The notes below the pieces were generated by a model. The model was given only the letters and a program-made list of their open reading frames with translations, made no database searches and was not told the DNA's origin. From a virus (lineage: Duplodnaviria > Heunggongvirae > Uroviricota > Caudoviricetes): a stretch of 34,029 nt of DNA. The stretch is from IMG/VR virus record IMGVR_UViG_649989947_000025; one strand, 5' to 3'. The position numbers and the translations under genes were made by a program. Positions 19,467 to 34,029 of the stretch are shown here, piece after piece (the first letter of the stretch is position 1; every line of letters begins with the position of its first letter).

Positions 19467-20441
19467 TTAAATCAAGTCTAATGTACTCTGTTTCCCTGGC
19501 CATTTTAGCTCTAACAAATACTCCCGGGACTCATTTATGATCATAATCACATCATCATAATCCCGTTTTGTTTTTAGCGCTCTAGCCATGTTGCTCTTAA
19601 CTAAATCAACTGTTCCCTCACAATTAAGATTAAGCGGATTATTAGGTAGGTGAGGTACAACCGCAAACACTGGTCTTTTCGCCTTATTTGCAAACTCAGC
19701 TTGAGTTATCGTTCCGCTATTTAACGCAGCCTCGATTAAAATTGAACCTGCAGATAATCCAACTTGTATCCGATTTCTTTGTACAAATGATTGTTTCTGG
19801 GCCGGCCGACCCATAGGATACTCAGAAATCCATGCACCACCTTTATCCAGAATCTCTTGAGCAAGTCGACTGTTTTGCTTCGGCTTAGCCTCCTCAAGAC
19901 CATGCGCCAAGACAGCAATGGTTTTTCCTTTTGCCTGTAACGTTGCCTTGTGGGCATTCGCATCAGTGCCTATTGCTAACCCACTTACAACAATATACCC
20001 AGCAGACACTATCTGATTAGTGATCCGCCTCGTTATTTCTTCCCCTGCAGGGGAGGTATCACGGGATCCTACAATTGCGACACCCGGCAATTCTTTGAGT
20101 ATACTTTTATCCCCTTTTATGTAGAGAATTGATGGTGGATTAGGAGTAAAAGCTAAACTAAGAGGATAGAATTCAGACCCATATGGTATTAGCTCCACAC
20201 CATTAACATGGTGGTTCTCCAATTCAGCGTTCGCTATTAGAAAATCAGTCTCAGATATTTTATCTTTTAGAAACCCGTGGCTATTAACCATCTCAGTTAA
20301 GTCGCGTATATCACGAATAACATCAAAATCGATAAGCTCAAAGAATTTTAATACACTTTGATCAGATGCTAGCTTCCCGATTTGAATAGCTAATCCAAGT
20401 GTATTTTTTAATTCTTCTGAGTGCACTTTGCTACTCCTCAT
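19467..20441 (-). CDS. DprA/Smf-like (SLOG Rossmann-fold) protein, ShosA-like partner of the upstream PRTase
   Basis: AIVGSRDTS ... VVSGLAIGTDANAHKATL ... TIAVLAHGLE motifs; 11-nt overlap with the upstream gene; AT-rich. Confidence 0.7.
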   Translation of the reverse strand: MRSSKVHSEELKNTLGLAIQIGKLASDQSVLKFFELIDFDVIRDIRDLTEMVNSHGFLKDKISETDFLIANAELENHHVNGVELIPYGSEFYPLSLAFTPNPPSILYIKGDKSILKELPGVAIVGSRDTSPAGEEITRRITNQIVSAGYIVVSGLAIGTDANAHKATLQAKGKTIAVLAHGLEEAKPKQNSRLAQEILDKGGAWISEYPMGRPAQKQSFVQRNRIQVGLSAGSILIEAALNSGTITQAEFANKAKRPVFAVVPHLPNNPLNLNCEGTVDLVKSNMARALKTKRDYDDVIMIINESREYLLELKWPGKQSTLDLI

Positions 20442-21006
20442 AGTTTGCAGTTTCTAGCAGAGCTAATGGCATTATAACTCCAGCTCCTGCAGACTCCAGT
20501 AAATAAAAACACGCAGACAAACTACCGCCTGTTGTTTTAACATCATCTAGTAGTAACACATTTCGCCCCATGAGGTTACCACCCCTAACTCTGATACTAG
20601 ACATGTGACCAGTAATTGAGCGATCTCCTCCTTCACGATGTGCGCTAGGAACAGTGCGTGTTCTTTCCAAACAGCAATCAACAATGCCCCGACGGTGAAC
20701 ATTTACGATTCGCTCGGCGACCTCAATCAAAGCCGGTGAAATTCTGCCTTCAGTGTGAGACGGGACAACTGCTATCGAAAAAGGAGACTCAACAAAACGC
20801 CCACCGCCACCTCTGATTACTAACCGCCCAACCTTATCTATAGCTAATCGAGAAAAACGGTTAATGGCCCTTTGATGATTACGATTATTTTCATCCTTAA
20901 AATCCATCATCTGCCTTGATAGTTCATCGCTATGAGGGTTGCGCTCTCCCAAATGCCAGTAGGGGTGATACAAGCCACACGATGTAATACTTACGGGTAA
21001 AAGCAT
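20431..21006 (-). CDS. phosphoribosyltransferase-domain protein, ShosT-like candidate toxin/effector
   Basis: PRTase PRPP-binding signature VLLLDDVKTTGGSL; first gene of a two-gene operon; AT-rich. Confidence 0.7.
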   Translation of the reverse strand: MLLPVSITSCGLYHPYWHLGERNPHSDELSRQMMDFKDENNRNHQRAINRFSRLAIDKVGRLVIRGGGGRFVESPFSIAVVPSHTEGRISPALIEVAERIVNVHRRGIVDCCLERTRTVPSAHREGGDRSITGHMSSIRVRGGNLMGRNVLLLDDVKTTGGSLSACFYLLESAGAGVIMPLALLETANYEE

Positions 21007-22062: not shown

Positions 22063-22296
22063 TTAATGCAGCCAGCTGTCGTCCTCCCACACCTTCTGCA
22101 TAATTTTCATCACTTGTTTTCTTTCTTCATCCAGTTGCAGTCCGGTTAGTTCCACACCGTTAGAGCTACCTTTGCGAATGCGAATTACCGTTTTGGGATA
22201 CAGGGGGCGCAGATTGCGGTAAAGCTCGGATTCAAGGGCGTCCAGGGTAGACTGGCTAATCTTCTGCTCTTTATCGATCATTATTTCAATGCGCAT
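22063..22296 (-). CDS. DinI-family protein
   Basis: MRIEIMIDK...LYRNLRPLYP...VWEDDSWL resembles DinI; start at internal Met (longest ORF to 22368). Confidence 0.75.
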   Translation of the reverse strand: MRIEIMIDKEQKISQSTLDALESELYRNLRPLYPKTVIRIRKGSSNGVELTGLQLDEERKQVMKIMQKVWEDDSWLH

Positions 22297-22306
22297 AAAA
22301 GTCACC

Positions 22307-22495
22307 TCAGCTGATGACATCCATTGAGCGGTTGTATTCGTGGCTTCTGATTTTTGCCATAAGTTCATCAGTCAATTCAGAAACCCACTGCAGAGCCAGC
22401 CCCTTCTCTTCATCACTACACTCACTAGCCGCTACAAGCTTAAGAAAAAAATCAATGCGCTGGAGCTTCAAAGACTCCAAAAAATAGTCCTGCAT
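22307..22495 (-). CDS. SOS-inducible small protein, Tum-like antirepressor candidate
   Basis: 62 aa from MQDY with AGGAGG SD; first gene downstream of the LexA box; arrangement recalls the 186 tum operon. Confidence 0.5.
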   Translation of the reverse strand: MQDYFLESLKLQRIDFFLKLVAASECSDEEKGLALQWVSELTDELMAKIRSHEYNRSMDVIS

Positions 22496-22649: not shown

Positions 22650-22883
22650 TTAATACAGGTTCCGCCACTTATCATCTTCCTGCAAACGCTGGTTCCGATA
22701 GAAGATACGCAGGCCAGCTCCTGACGGAATACTGCCGCCGCGAAGGAGTAAATCGACCTCTTTCTCGCTGCCATCAAATCCTCTGGATTTCAGTTCATAG
22801 ACGAGCTGCTGTCGTTGATGGTCTGTAATTCGCTGTTTGTAGTCTCTACGCCGTTTCGGTTTCACCAGACGTAACCTTGCAGC
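22650..22883 (-). pseudogene. A: displaced 3' fragment of replication gene A (about 76 codons) separated by the IS insertion
   Basis: reading frame is continuous with the A ORF once the IS and one target-duplication copy are removed. Confidence 0.65.
22879..22883. repeat. 5-bp target site duplication GCAGC (left copy)
   Basis: identical 5-mer directly abuts both IS ends. Confidence 0.75.
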
Positions 22884-27019
<4,136 letters not shown>

Positions 27020-28914: not shown

Positions 28915-29430
28915 TCACAGCAAACCGAATGAAGCACCGAGGCCAGTCACGGTATCAACTGCACTCGCCATCGCAGGATTAGCCTGTAAACGGGCCTGCA
29001 ATGAAACAGCAGCCAGCGCCATCAGTCGTGTAACAGAGTTAATGCTGCTGATCGCATCACGACGGCCTGCACTGGTTTTTACATCGCCAGAAACCGCACC
29101 TGCCGCGACACGCCCTATCTCTGCAGTTGCACTCATGACGTAATGCGGCAGTTTCTCTTTTGCCACCTCATTAATCGGTACACATGGCAGGCAGTGAATC
29201 TGTGCCAGAAAGCCATCTACCAGCGTTGAATCTTCAGTCAGATCGGTAAGCAGCCAGATTTCTGGCGCATTGAGCTGATGCGGTTGATCTGGGTTGAGTT
29301 TGTTTCGCAGAGTCTGGACATTCATTCCTGCACGTTCTGCCAGCTTCGCCATATTGTGACGAAGTGCAAAAGCTCTACAGGCTTCATCAAAATGCGGGTG
29401 TTTGGAAACTTGGTAATCAAACATGGTCAA
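28915..29430 (-). CDS. CII-like lysogeny establishment regulator (186 CII-type)
   Basis: 171 aa, second gene of the early operon after the Apl/Cox-like gene; size matches 186 CII. Confidence 0.6.
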
Positions 29431-29456
29431 TGCCTCTGATGTATTTCAGAATCGAA

Positions 29457-29678
29457 CTAATTAAGGTTTAGATTGCATTCTGAAAGCGCATCAACGGTCA
29501 TGGCTGCTATGTTGATCATCACTTTTTCGCGTTTTTTATCTTTCCGCAGACGGTGACGGATAAGACGTCCATCAGCCAACATGTCATTGATAGTATCGAT
29601 GGATAGCCCTGTCAGCTCGCTATAACGTTCAATAGTCACATGAGGCGTGGTAAGAGTGATTGAAATGTTAGGTTTCAT
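29457..29678 (-). CDS. Apl/Cox-like small DNA-binding protein
   Basis: 73 aa, first gene of the early operon, divergent from cI. Confidence 0.6.
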
Positions 29679-29797
29679 GATGCAACATTCCTCGTTTAAT
29701 GTTGATTAATCAGGACGAATACGGATCGTTTGTATTTTGTGAACACCATAAACATACGATCGCATAATGAAATCATCAAGACAAAAGTTCACTTGGA
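29679..29797. promoter_or_regulatory. lysis-lysogeny switch region between apl-like and cI
   Basis: 119-bp AT-rich intergenic region between divergently oriented repressor and early operon. Confidence 0.5.
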
Positions 29798-30373
29798 GTG
29801 ACCATGAATTTGGAGAAAGGCGGACGAGGCGCTATAGAGCGCATGGTAGAAGCATATGGCTTCAAGACTCGACAGGCGTTGTGCGATCACTTAGGAATCT
29901 CTAAAAGTACTCTCGCCACACGCTATATGCGTGACTCATTCCCTGCTGAATGGGTAATCCAGTGCGCACTTGAAACGGGCGCCTCGCTTAACTGGCTCAC
30001 GACCGGACATGGTTCAAAGCAAACTTCAGGTAATACAAATACTATGGAAGTCGTTAAATATGTATTATCTGATGGAACCTTGCAGGAAGATGGTTTTTAT
30101 ATTTTCGATAAAGAATTTCTACCATCTACGCTCAAAAATCCGTTTGTAATCACCGATAACAATTCCGTTTTTATTTGCGATAAAGAGTTTAACGATATTC
30201 GTGACGGCAAATGGGTAATAAGTATTGATGCCGAAGTAACAATCCGCGATATCACTCGTTTACCTGGTGGAAGAATCTTAGTTGAAGGTGGAAATAGGGC
30301 TTTCGAATGTAAAAAAGAAGAAATCGAAATTATTGGAAAAATTATAAGCATAACAGTTAAGTACTTTGAGTAA
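29798..30373 (+). CDS. cI: CI-type immunity repressor (186 CI-like)
   Basis: 191 aa, N-terminal CI-type HTH (KTRQALCDHLGISKSTLATRYMRD) plus C-terminal oligomerisation domain; position next to the switch. Confidence 0.8.
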   Translation: MTMNLEKGGRGAIERMVEAYGFKTRQALCDHLGISKSTLATRYMRDSFPAEWVIQCALETGASLNWLTTGHGSKQTSGNTNTMEVVKYVLSDGTLQEDGFYIFDKEFLPSTLKNPFVITDNNSVFICDKEFNDIRDGKWVISIDAEVTIRDITRLPGGRILVEGGNRAFECKKEEIEIIGKIISITVKYFE

Positions 30374-30423
30374 TATAGGAATGTTTTTATGCTTGGTAAA
30401 GCATTTGTTGTGGTGTAAAAAAT

Positions 30424-31347
30424 ATGTCAACTCAAAAATTAAAATTTAGCCATATCAAAAACGATCTGAAAGCAATAGTTATGCAGAATCGTGGAGGGCA
30501 AAAAGTTATTGAGCGTATACTCCTAGCCTATGGCTTCAAGTCACGACAGGCATTATGTAATCATCTAGGTATTTCCCAAAGTACTATGGCCAACAGATAT
30601 GCACGTAATACCTTTCCTGCAGATTGGGTTGTTATATGTTCCATAGAAACAGGAGCATCAATTGAATGGTTAGTTCTTGGTTCAGATACTGCTCCTTCAT
30701 CAGAGCAATATTCTGAAAAACATGCCGTTAATGGCCTTTGCAATGAAGTATACATTCCCACTATAAAGTTCGATAATGAAAAACTCATGAATTTTAACCG
30801 AGGGGGTAAGGCAACAATAGAACGAATTGTCGAGGCTTACGGTTACAAAACGCGCCAAGCATTAGCTGATCACCTAGGTATTTCAAAAAGCACATTAGCC
30901 ACACGATACATGCGTGACATTTTTCCTGCAGACTGGGTTTTGCAGTGTGCAATAGAAACGGGCCATTCTATTGAATGGATTTCATTTGGTACAGGAGAAA
31001 TGAAAAACGCAAAAAATAAAGATACTTTAACATTAGTGAAAAAAGTATTAATCAATGGCAAGTTAATAAATGATGGCTCATATTTATTTGACCCATGCTT
31101 TCTACCTTCCAATTTAAAAAATGCATTCGTAGTATCTACCGAAGACTCTGAATTAATATGTGAAATGGGTTTTAAAGATGTACATGATGGTAAGTGGCTA
31201 GTAAATATTGATGGAGAGAATTCATTTAGAATGATAACTCGACTACCTAAAGGACGAGTTTATATTTCATCCCAAAATCACTCTTTTGAATGTTCGCTTA
31301 CAGACATTGAGTTTATTGCAAAAGTTATTATAAGTTGTTTACATTAA
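30424..31347 (+). CDS. CI-repressor paralog with two tandem CI-type HTH domains
   Basis: residues ~24-88 and ~127-190 each repeat the CI HTH; C-terminal ~110 aa align with the C-terminal domain of the upstream CI. Confidence 0.75.
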   Translation: MSTQKLKFSHIKNDLKAIVMQNRGGQKVIERILLAYGFKSRQALCNHLGISQSTMANRYARNTFPADWVVICSIETGASIEWLVLGSDTAPSSEQYSEKHAVNGLCNEVYIPTIKFDNEKLMNFNRGGKATIERIVEAYGYKTRQALADHLGISKSTLATRYMRDIFPADWVLQCAIETGHSIEWISFGTGEMKNAKNKDTLTLVKKVLINGKLINDGSYLFDPCFLPSNLKNAFVVSTEDSELICEMGFKDVHDGKWLVNIDGENSFRMITRLPKGRVYISSQNHSFECSLTDIEFIAKVIISCLH

Positions 31348-31372
31348 GTAAATTTTTCATGGAGACTTCATA

Positions 31373-32890
31373 GTGAAATGTGGTGATTGTAATTGGAACT
31401 GGGATGAAGAAACTACCTTTATATTAGACGACGAAGAGGAAATTCTTTCCAAAGACAAACTTAATCGGAGACACTATGCAGAATATCTATATTTTTATCT
31501 TAAGGAAAAGGGGCAAAAGAACAACACGGTAATCAACCTTAATGCAGAATGGGGAGCTGGTAAAAGTTTTTTCATAAAGAGATTTTATAACTCAATAAAA
31601 GATGCACACCCATGCGTTTACATTGATGCCTGGAAGCAAGACTTTTCTGATGATGCATTTTTAACCCTTTTTTCTTCTTTGTCACAACAATTGCAAACAT
31701 ATGCAGGAAAACTTGATGCTCGATTGATACAAAGCGGCCATGCTATCGGACGCTTTACAAAAGGTGTTCTACCTGAAATCATATCTGGCCTAATCAAGAC
31801 TTATGCAGGAGTAGATAACGTAGGTGATATAGCCAAAGAAGCCTCATTAATAATGCTGAAGGAACACCAGGAAAAACTGAAGAGCATTAAGGTATTAAAA
31901 AAAGAACTAACGTTATGGTCTAGGTTGGCATATGAAAATAGTTTTTCATGTCCTATATTTATCTTTATAGATGAATTAGACAGATGCAGGCCAGATTATG
32001 CAATTTCTCTTTTAGAGATTGTTAAACATATATTCGATATTAAAAATTTTGTCTTTATTATTGCTACTGACACAGATCAATTACAACATTCAATCAAGAA
32101 TGTTTACGGTAATGATTTTTCCGCAAATGACTATTTAGGCCGTTTTTTTCATAGAAGATTTACTTTAAAACAACCTGAACTTAAAGATTTAATTAATGGT
32201 GTTGTTGGTGATTATATTGGTACCGATTTTGAAAATATCACATCAAAAACACACCCACTAACAGCAACATTAGAAGACTTTTCAATAAATATTTCCAACG
32301 TATTTGAAGCATTTGGGTTAAATCTAAGAGACTCAATCCGAAATACTGAAAGGTTAATAGACATTCTTAAATCTGATTTAGTCAAAAAGAAAGTAGATTA
32401 TATTTTTATAATTTCGCTAATGATTATATATGATAAGGAACGTCAAATTATAGATGGACTAATTGGTCGAAGAAATGCAGCACAACGTTTCACTGATTCG
32501 ATAAAGCAAAGCTCCAATTTAAAAGGTGTTTCTCAAGCCATCCTTGAATTAAATCTTGATACAAATCAGCAAAGAATAGGTGTCAATTATATCTATAGAA
32601 CGGCGAGCAGTAGATTATTCATCTCACAGATCGAGCCCAAAATAAATTTAACATTAATAAATTACTTAGATGTTGCATTGTATTTTATTAATAATATAAA
32701 CATGCTTAAATCAAGTATAAAAAACAATGGGCAAAATTCACTAATGATTATATCTCAACAAGGCCCTATTGATGGTGATACAGCTATAAAGTATTTGCAA
32801 GGAGCCCTTATAGAGAATGGTCTGAATACATCTTTTTATGCCTTACATAATTACATTGAATTAATTGAACTGGCCACATCATTTGATTAA
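31373..32890 (+). CDS. KAP-family P-loop NTPase
   Basis: Walker A NAEWGAGKSFF, KAP-type Walker B FIFIDELDRC, 505 aa, GTG start with GGAG SD; very AT-rich. Confidence 0.75.
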   Translation: MKCGDCNWNWDEETTFILDDEEEILSKDKLNRRHYAEYLYFYLKEKGQKNNTVINLNAEWGAGKSFFIKRFYNSIKDAHPCVYIDAWKQDFSDDAFLTLFSSLSQQLQTYAGKLDARLIQSGHAIGRFTKGVLPEIISGLIKTYAGVDNVGDIAKEASLIMLKEHQEKLKSIKVLKKELTLWSRLAYENSFSCPIFIFIDELDRCRPDYAISLLEIVKHIFDIKNFVFIIATDTDQLQHSIKNVYGNDFSANDYLGRFFHRRFTLKQPELKDLINGVVGDYIGTDFENITSKTHPLTATLEDFSINISNVFEAFGLNLRDSIRNTERLIDILKSDLVKKKVDYIFIISLMIIYDKERQIIDGLIGRRNAAQRFTDSIKQSSNLKGVSQAILELNLDTNQQRIGVNYIYRTASSRLFISQIEPKINLTLINYLDVALYFINNINMLKSSIKNNGQNSLMIISQQGPIDGDTAIKYLQGALIENGLNTSFYALHNYIELIELATSFD

Positions 32891-32952
32891 AAGCATTGTT
32901 TGAATAAACTAAACCATACATTGACCACTGGTCAAACATACAGTTAAATTTA

Positions 32953-32976
32953 GCCCTCTGATATGAGGGCTTTATT
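32953..32976 (+). terminator. hairpin plus T-tract ending at the int start codon
   Basis: gccctc-tgatat-gagggc then tttatt, then ATG at 32977. Confidence 0.5.
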
Positions 32977-34029
32977 ATGGCAGTACGAAAACTCACCACA
33001 GGAAAATGGCTTTGCGAATGTTACCCCGCCGGACGTAGTGGGCGTCGTGTGCGTAAACAATTCGCCACCAAAGGCGAAGCACTGGCTTTTGAGCGTCACA
33101 CGATGGAAGAAACCGAAGCAAAGCCCTGGCTGGGTGAATCAGTGGATCGTCGAACACTGAAAGACGTGGTTGAGCTATGGTTCAAACTACATGGTAAATC
33201 TCTGACTGCTGGGCAGCATGTCTATGACAAATTGCTGCTGATGGTTGACGCTCTGGGCAATCCCCTTGCAACTGATCTAACCTCTAAAATGTTTGCCCAC
33301 TATCGAGATAAACGCCTGACAGGTGAGATCTACTTCAGTGAGAAATGGAAGAAAGGAGCAAGCCCGGTCACCATTAACCTGGAGCAAAGCTATCTAAGTA
33401 GTGTTTTTAGCGAACTATCCCGCCTGGGCGAATGGTCGTATCCGAACCCACTGGAGAACATGCGAAAATTCACCATCGCAGAAAAAGAGATGGCATGGCT
33501 TACCCATGAGCAGATTGTTGAATTACTAGCTGATTGCAAACGTCAGGACCCAATTCTGGCACTGGTAGTTAAGATATGCTTAAGCACAGGCGCACGCTGG
33601 CGAGAAGACGTAAATCTTACCCGCTCACAGGTGACCAAATACCGAATTACCTTTGTAAGAGCGAAGGGGAAGAAAAACAGAAGCATCCCTATCAGTAAAG
33701 AGCTTTACGAAGAGATCATGGCGCTTGATGGGTTCAATTTCTTCACAGACTGCTATTTTCAATTTTTATCCGTGATGGAAAAAACGTCTATCGTGCTCCC
33801 TCGCGGTCAACTCACACACGTTCTGCGCCATACGTTTGCGGCGCACTTCATGATGTCGGGTGGAAACATTCTGGCTTTACAAAAAATTCTCGGACACCAC
33901 GATATAAAAATGACTATGCGTTACGCACATCTGGCACCGGATCATCTGGAAACGGCGCTCCGTTTCAATCCTCTGGCAACGCTGCCAAGTGGCGACAAAG
34001 TGGCGGCAGCGGTTGGCATTACCCCGTAA
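32977..34029 (+). CDS. int: tyrosine integrase (P2/186 Int family)
   Basis: 350 aa with RHTFA and HHDIKMTMRYAHL motifs (catalytic R..H..R..Y); stop codon is the last 3 nt of the window. Confidence 0.9.
   Translation: MAVRKLTTGKWLCECYPAGRSGRRVRKQFATKGEALAFERHTMEETEAKPWLGESVDRRTLKDVVELWFKLHGKSLTAGQHVYDKLLLMVDALGNPLATDLTSKMFAHYRDKRLTGEIYFSEKWKKGASPVTINLEQSYLSSVFSELSRLGEWSYPNPLENMRKFTIAEKEMAWLTHEQIVELLADCKRQDPILALVVKICLSTGARWREDVNLTRSQVTKYRITFVRAKGKKNRSIPISKELYEEIMALDGFNFFTDCYFQFLSVMEKTSIVLPRGQLTHVLRHTFAAHFMMSGGNILALQKILGHHDIKMTMRYAHLAPDHLETALRFNPLATLPSGDKVAAAVGITP

Follow-up and report, generated by a model that had tools for sequence, protein, structure and literature searches.

In the passages of Rousset et al. 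(2022, PMC9122126) that deal with it, the interval between the repressor gene cI and the integrase gene int of Vibrio K139-like, P2-related phages is described as a defence hotspot. The phage defence candidates (PDCs) of PADLOC are 145 untested candidates that were nominated from their embedding in BREX, DISARM and type I restriction–modification (RM) loci (Payne et al., bioRxiv 10.1101/2024.01.29.577857), and KAP nucleoside triphosphatases (NTPases) unrelated to the one considered here confer on Enterococcus a protection that depends on Walker B (PMC12632615). The subject of this work is a two-gene cassette in the cI–int interval of IMG/VR record IMGVR_UViG_649989947_000025. The window, by which we mean the whole stretch of 34,029 nucleotides, is a complete 186-like (Peduoviridae) prophage, integrated beside rcdA/ybjJ (Escherichia coli E2348/69 type). 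Gene 1 of the cassette encodes a CI-type repressor with two helix-turn-helix (HTH) domains and gene 2 a KAP-family NTPase (Table 1).

The evidence supports the view that the cassette was acquired horizontally and forms cargo of the lysogenic operon. With moderate confidence, we read it as cargo of a cI–int hotspot in which gene 2 would be a single-protein defence, gene 1 a repressor without its switch, and the two genes independent of one another. Judged by sequence, three independent lines make defence cargo of a single gene the best reading of KAP: its PADLOC family was nominated from embedding in defence loci, it lies in a hotspot, and its homologues are retained in decayed prophages. A first-pass annotation of this DNA had proposed an exclusion module made of both genes, with the HTH protein as a possible regulator or sensor of the NTPase. 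The defence role is borne out as plausible by the PADLOC match of gene 2 and by the presence of Old and PD-Lambda-1 in the same slot of sister prophages; the two-gene arrangement fares less well, as discussed below.

The slot between cI and int

The insert was bounded against L002, the commonest related E. coli prophage, whose cI–int interval contains only an open reading frame (ORF) of 63 amino acids (aa). BLAST homology between L002 and the window runs through position 30414 at 91.5% identity and resumes from 32915 at 97.6%. The GC content of the intervening stretch is 0.331, against 0.518 in the remaining window. The low-GC insert of the first-pass annotation is thus real, and both ORFs lie where it had placed them. 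Its statement that int directly follows the repressor in phages of this type is nearly right for the empty state, in which the 63-aa ORF intervenes. Gene 1 starts directly after a nine-codon remnant of that ORF; at the right junction, homology with L002 returns inside a conserved element upstream of int.

The cI–int region is 99.8–99.9% identical to that of E. coli E2348/69, KFu019 and 15 further complete genomes. Of 5426 complete E. coli genomes, 17 contain the full 4.3-kb arrangement, as do 4 of the 80 IMG/VR loci described below; genes 1 and 2 occur together in every exact-match context, and both ORFs are uninterrupted in all 17 genomes, which come from human, dog, pig, river and seawater sources. 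One copy of the whole arrangement lies on a 150-kb record that bears a plasmid label (L018; NZ_JBRERE010000002.1, 'plasmid pE100181_149') and nevertheless carries the chromosomal rcdA and ybjJ flank. Its int is a divergent allele (synonymous divergence, dS, 0.42), whereas its cI, gene 1 and KAP gene are almost identical to those of the window, a pattern that suggests that the right flank has recombined and perhaps that the record is misassembled or mislabelled.

Comparing the cI–int interval across 186-like prophages, as the first-pass annotation had proposed, brings out a range of alternative cargo. The content between the first cI and int was classified in the 80 IMG/VR loci whose int is at least 99% identical to that of the window, these being the best 80 of 598 confirmed int relatives. 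The 63-aa ORF stands alone in 46 of the 80. A 558-aa homologue of PD-Lambda-1 (2e-120) occupies the slot in 11 loci, a tandem-HTH CI with a homologue of P2 Old in five (9e-235 in the L004 example), and the arrangement of the window, cI followed by a tandem-HTH CI and KAP, in four. Three loci have cI, the 63-aa ORF and a shorter KAP gene; two have a tandem-HTH CI with PDC-M18A/B; one has cI, a 354-aa protein and PDC-M11A/B; and one, of the 4LV2017/ECE218 type, has a tandem-HTH CI with 349-aa and 201-aa proteins of no known family. A tandem-HTH CI accompanies other cargo lacking a family match in a further five, and no CI was found upstream of int in the remaining two. At least 11 distinct slot contents, Old and PD-Lambda-1 included, are therefore found across loci with near-identical int, and the cI–int interval of 186-like prophages qualifies as a defence hotspot as Rousset et al. 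use the term.

Several further observations concern the slot. All 13 loci in which a tandem-HTH CI is the sole repressor have sizeable cargo, while 46 of the 61 loci with a single-HTH CI only have the 63-aa ORF alone; this correlation may reflect shared lineage or a true association. In the tandem-CI phages the switch measures 87–88 bp, compared with 119–146 bp in the others. The default occupant itself (L002 3690–3881) belongs to phrog_6000, is annotated as 'YdcA family' in some genomes, and has a hydrophobic N-terminus and several cysteines. Its product may be a moron of the secreted or lipoprotein type.

The KAP NTPase

Gene 2 consists of an NTPase region (approximately residues 30–293) followed by a C-terminal region of about 215 aa. 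The assignment made in the first-pass annotation holds: the Pfam profile KAP_NTPase (PF07693) matches residues 32–293 over profile positions 1–248 of 293 (9.2e-46; 156.9 bits, the curated gathering score being 20), and both Walker motifs are present. Walker A is GAGKS at residues 61–65 and Walker B is IFIFIDELDRCRP at residues 195–207, with the core IFIFIDELD at 195–203; G61, G63, K64 and D200–P207 are unchanged across 44 homologues. Transmembrane helices in or near the NTPase domain are frequent in the KAP family and are not obligatory. None is predicted in gene 2, the top 19-residue Kyte–Doolittle mean being 1.43 and located in the NTPase core. The structural model contains a helical insert at residues 95–188, of low confidence, and a confidently predicted C-terminal fold for which no solved structural relative was found.

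All four PDC-S20 models of PADLOC, which lack a curated threshold, match gene 2 (5.1e-78, 6.5e-47, 6.2e-33 and 4.7e-26), the best of them spanning residues 20–389 over profile positions 11–382 of 464. A literature search found no study of PDC-S20, of WP_000649630, of this KAP protein or of the two-repressor arrangement.

At E ≤ 1e-10, the search for homologues yielded 923 relatives. In Klebsiella, Enterobacter and Serratia prophages, the slot behind a single-HTH CI is filled by homologues at 79, 62 and 52% identity, and in E. coli W by a full-length homologue at 34% identity that matches PDC-S20 equally well; at other KAP loci the 63-aa ORF lies between cI and KAP. A homologue at 36% is retained in Enterobacter, where a remnant of a prophage, reduced to GIY-YIG, KAP and a shortened int, lies at this same attachment site. 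Among chromosomal homologues, that of Pectobacterium has upstream of it a 160-aa protein of no known family, that of Ewingella has a 76-aa HTH_3 gene directly upstream, and those of Pseudoalteromonas and Aeromonas lie among housekeeping genes with no partner gene. The neighbours thus vary between CI, the 63-aa ORF, GIY-YIG, the 160-aa protein, HTH_3 and none, which argues for the autonomy of the KAP protein. The ratio of nonsynonymous to synonymous substitution (dN/dS) is 0.08 between gene 2 and its Klebsiella homologue and 0.15–0.30 between gene 1 and its relatives, values that indicate purifying selection in both families relative to their nearest relatives.

The supernumerary repressor

Gene 1 comprises HTH-1 (approximately residues 23–86), HTH-2 (126–189) and a CI C-terminal domain (207–302). 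Pfam finds two Phage_CI_repr stretches (3.8e-56) and Phage_CI_C (1.5e-25), in agreement with the earlier view of gene 1 as a CI paralog with a duplicated HTH; the two HTH domains share 66% identity. Such proteins make up a genuine class of immunity repressor. Dozens of 90% clusters, with members from Salmonella, E. coli, Klebsiella, Enterobacter, Citrobacter and Edwardsiella, consist of tandem-HTH CIs of 290–330 aa. A tandem-HTH CI is the sole cI, directly divergent from apl, of the isolated phage 4LV2017 and of the E. coli prophages ECE218 and elppa10.

That is not the situation of gene 1, which lies 3' of another cI and not beside, or divergent from, a cognate apl/pR switch; switch-like sequences of its relatives are absent from the window. 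The first cI (cI_A, annotated in RefSeq as phage repressor protein CI) is regarded as the cognate repressor and gene 1 as supernumerary because the resident switch matches that of prophages having cI_A alone, such as L002, which carries a cI_A-type repressor only. The resident switch shares no 10-mer with the switches of tandem-CI or KAP-carrying phages except in a conserved stretch at the start of apl. An operator search in the switches of the window and of the tandem-CI and KAP-carrying phages gave candidate inverted repeats that differ by lineage, at sites that are not rigorously definable. On its domain content, gene 1 is predicted to be an intact tandem-HTH CI that would act as an immunity repressor but has been left with no switch region of its own.

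Evidence on its origin comes from two sides. The 5' third of gene 1 (30416–30991) has about 79% DNA identity to the tandem-HTH cI that is the only repressor gene in Klebsiella phage 4LV2017 and E. coli ECE218. The part of gene 1 that begins with HTH-2 is colinear with the cI of L007, a Klebsiella prophage ordered apl, cI (186 aa), KAP, int (77% DNA and 69% protein identity), and this colinearity extends at 77% DNA identity to int (window 30829–33988). Since the two portions resemble different repressors, gene 1 looks like a tandem-HTH N-terminus fused to a CI that travels with KAP. The cassette as a whole looks like a cI–KAP block from a heteroimmune relative, placed switch-less after the resident cI. 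A putative donor with apl, a tandem gene 1-like cI, KAP and int, and without cI_A, was not found among the loci of this analysis.

These observations suggest the following scheme. The cI–KAP block would have been taken, promoterless, from a heteroimmune relative, replacing most of the 63-aa ORF. The lysogenic promoter would drive the resident cI and the cassette as one transcript, which would stop at the hairpin before int, so that the cargo would be produced in lysogens. Gene 2 would act as the defence component, a soluble single-protein KAP (STAND-like) NTPase with no dedicated partner, whose conserved C-terminal region might recognize a phage-derived cue; NTP-dependent switching or oligomerization could then block or abort infection. 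Gene 1 would not be a sensor for gene 2. Its added function, if any, would most likely be to make the lysogen immune to superinfecting phages that share the donor's immunity type, this being the most economical functional reading; otherwise it would be a tolerated passenger.

Other readings of gene 1 have been considered. A possible, if doubtful, one is that the captured switch-less tandem-HTH repressor is itself the selected defence cargo, either shutting down superinfecting phages of the immunity group of a rival 186-like lineage or serving as bait whose inactivation by an incoming antirepressor or Apl licenses KAP; if so, it would represent a repressor-based layer of inter-phage warfare that has not been described for P2/186-like phages. 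We consider it unlikely that gene 1 instead acts on the resident prophage, by operator binding, co-assembly with cI_A or titration of a Tum-type antirepressor, and so tunes the stability or inducibility of lysogeny, with KAP as unrelated cargo. The HTH-2 recognition-helix region GISKSTLATRYMRD is identical in gene 1 and cI_A, the two proteins are 54% identical overall with C-terminal domains that align throughout, and a DinI/Tum-like ORF is present at 22063–22368. However, this HTH stretch is almost identical among CIs with very different switch regions, so that helix identity is no predictor of operator choice, and one CI suffices in most relatives.

As to the pairing of the two genes, a conserved two-gene system is not supported, because each gene repeatedly occurs without the other. 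For such a system to exist, the tandem-HTH protein would have to regulate KAP or sense infection, for example through an antirepressor or operators of a superinfecting phage that release KAP activity, and this we regard as quite unlikely. Evidence for it includes the co-occurrence of the two genes in all exact-match contexts, the spacer between CI-type genes and KAP (25 nt, kept at 25–26 nt in L007 and the Enterobacter prophage) and the small HTH_3 gene next to the Ewingella homologue. Nevertheless, close KAP homologues (52–79%) follow single-HTH CIs, distant ones follow other genes or nothing, and some are separated from cI by the 63-aa ORF; other homologues have neither a CI nor an HTH neighbour. 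Tandem-HTH CIs, for their part, serve as sole phage repressors and adjoin Old, PDC-M18 or cargo of no known family. Adjacency of CI and KAP is accounted for by the slot, which lies directly 3' of cI, and in PADLOC the family is represented as a candidate of one gene. The first-pass annotation would have abandoned its module if no KAP-family match had been found, or if the same genes proved essential in functional 186-like phages. The match is present, yet the second point applies to half of the pair, the gene 1 type being the sole, presumably essential, repressor of the isolated phage 4LV2017.

It is distinctly improbable that the cassette is a neutral recombination scar, in which two 186-like phages exchanged DNA illegitimately and both genes came along as passengers, of no benefit to host or prophage. 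The left junction within the 63-aa ORF, where no homology is evident, and the rarity of the arrangement (17 of 5426 genomes) would fit such an origin, and copies more than 99% identical carry little information on selection within the lineage. Against this are the intact state of both ORFs in 17 of 17 genomes of varied source, the purifying selection in both families, the validated defence genes that otherwise occupy the slot and the retention of KAP in decayed prophages. A role for KAP in the phage life cycle (control of integration or excision, or the lysogeny decision) rather than in defence is suggested by its place beside int in the cI–int operon of many 186-like prophages of several genera, but is highly improbable given that most prophages with the same integrase lack KAP, that homologues stand alone among chromosomal housekeeping genes and that the family has been picked up independently within BREX, DISARM and RM loci.

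Surroundings of the cassette and comparison with known systems

Table 1. Features of the cassette and its flanks, in window coordinates.
Feature	Coordinates	Strand	Evidence and remarks
apl-like gene, first of the lytic operon, divergent from cI	29457..29678	-	73-aa ORF; position beside cII
Lysis–lysogeny switch region, cognate to the first cI	29679..29797	.	Inside the 29400–30414 block, 91.5% identical to L002
cI_A, resident immunity repressor, single HTH	29798..30373	+	Pfam: Phage_CI_repr 3e-33, Phage_CI_C 7e-27; RefSeq start 29804
Remnant of the 63-aa ORF (first 9 codons); left junction of the cassette	30389..30415	+	30360–30440 aligned with L002 3661–3741
Cassette replacing most of the 63-aa ORF	30415..32914	+	About 2.5 kb; BLAST breakpoints against L002
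Gene 1, supernumerary tandem-HTH CI-type repressor	30424..31347	+	307 aa; Pfam
Gene 2, soluble KAP-family P-loop NTPase, PADLOC PDC-S20 family	31373..32890	+	505 aa; Pfam, PADLOC
Promoter-like hexamers TTGACC-18 nt-TAAATT upstream of int	32921..32950	+	Consensus scan; candidate
GC-rich hairpin and T-run reaching the int ATG	32952..32971	+	Terminator-like site; variant stems conserved in L002, L007 and L001
Integrase, conserved right flank of the slot	32977..34029	+	Pfam: Int_N 4e-32, Phage_integrase 2e-20

The minus-strand early genes are, in order, replication gene A, dam, traR-like, DUF2732, DUF5347, fil, cII (28915–29430; Phage_CP76 in relatives) and apl. The last is assigned because its position beside cII fits apl, and the ORF is about 85% identical, by eye, to its equivalent in 4LV2017. 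On the other side of the cassette, the promoter-like element upstream of int is conserved in L002, L007 and L001. A promoter consensus scan gave 15 sites against 15.7 expected from shuffled sequence, and thus no evidence of independent promoters inside the cassette. The hairpin at 32952–32971 is probably the 3' boundary or an attenuator of the cI–cargo transcript. The only Rfam match, over the element at 32910–32978, is to RyhB, full-length but sub-threshold (26.1 bits against a gathering score of 55; E 0.1), and is treated as a chance match driven by the terminator.

Elsewhere in the prophage, an IS21-family element (22881–24842; IstA 23729–24751 and IstB 22950–23732, both on the minus strand) has inserted into replication gene A some 230 nt short of its 3' end. 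The gene A ORF is 752 aa long, as against 804 aa in KFu019 and E2348/69, neither of which has the IS21 insertion, and this copy of the prophage may be replication-defective. A Shosta-like pair (19467–21006, minus strand; ShosA 2.8e-70 with a DprA-like DNA_processg_A domain, ShosT 3.7e-14) is located between the portal gene and a DinI-like gene; KFu019 has different genes there, which points to another variable cargo region in the same prophage. The DinI-like ORF (22063–22368, minus strand; 101 aa; Pfam DinI 1.2e-22) could encode an SOS antirepressor; the Tum protein of 186 has a DinI-like part. A further variable slot lies between int and the rcdA attachment site (L015 2588–3340, L016 2555–3783, L017 2410–3132, L018 6093–6644, L007 7878–9100). 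It contains a DUF2971 protein (PADLOC PDC-S31, 4e-23), a Panacea-domain protein with a 251-aa partner, a 240-aa protein of no known family, or a serine acetyltransferase. The DUF2971, Panacea and 240-aa proteins were ruled out as cI–int cargo, the loci showing their position to be downstream of int.

Should the KAP protein prove protective against phages, PADLOC candidate PDC-S20 would gain its first functional evidence, and there would be a compact, soluble, 505-aa KAP/STAND-like defence protein in a very tractable host (E. coli E2348/69 and relatives). The cI–int interval of enterobacterial 186-like prophages is a rich and easily mined hotspot, with validated systems beside several unannotated cargos, and a prophage with two repressors offers a natural way to test whether superinfection immunity is extended through the capture of rival repressors.

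How gene 2 compares with described systems differs from case to case. PDC-S20 is a single-gene candidate and the homologues of gene 2 are likewise able to stand alone; however, PDC-S20 was nominated inside BREX, DISARM and RM loci, whereas gene 2 lies in a prophage cI–int slot and its last ~115 residues fall outside the PDC-S20 model match. The likeness to F-plasmid PifA, which mediates T7 exclusion, holds for the KAP-type P-loop NTPase domain (PADLOC PifA 9.4e-17) and not for the full length: the match is limited to residues 26–274 (profile 15–262 of 720), and the C-terminal regions are unrelated. QatA is matched only in part (residues 148–247; 6.9e-14) and the neighbours of gene 2 are cI-type genes and int, not those of QatABCD. 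The closest solved fold is that of RdrA, the RADAR ATPase, but sequence identity is 12%, RdrA has approximately 785–796 residues against 505, and no gene for the RdrB deaminase is found near gene 2. Gene 1 and the resident cI belong to the same family as the CI repressor of coliphage 186 (Phage_CI_repr with Phage_CI_C); unlike 186 CI, gene 1 has two N-terminal HTH domains and, in this prophage, no adjacent switch region.

The module cannot be called undescribed, as the first-pass annotation had it, since the KAP family is already listed as a single-gene candidate and a cI–int hotspot is reported in PMC9122126. Like the hotspots of that paper, the slot is a small locus (0.3–3 kb) between two conserved phage genes, with fast turnover and known systems (Old, PD-Lambda-1) as alternative alleles. 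The cI–int example given there is from Vibrionaceae, and the E. coli P2 hotspots are not placed at cI–int in the cited passages. The slot described here is the equivalent in 186-like prophages of E. coli, Klebsiella, Enterobacter and Serratia, one of its alleles carrying an entire extra repressor gene. The cassette is thus a further example of prophage hotspot cargo and of a PDC-S20 KAP NTPase, in which the captured repressor is the unusual element.

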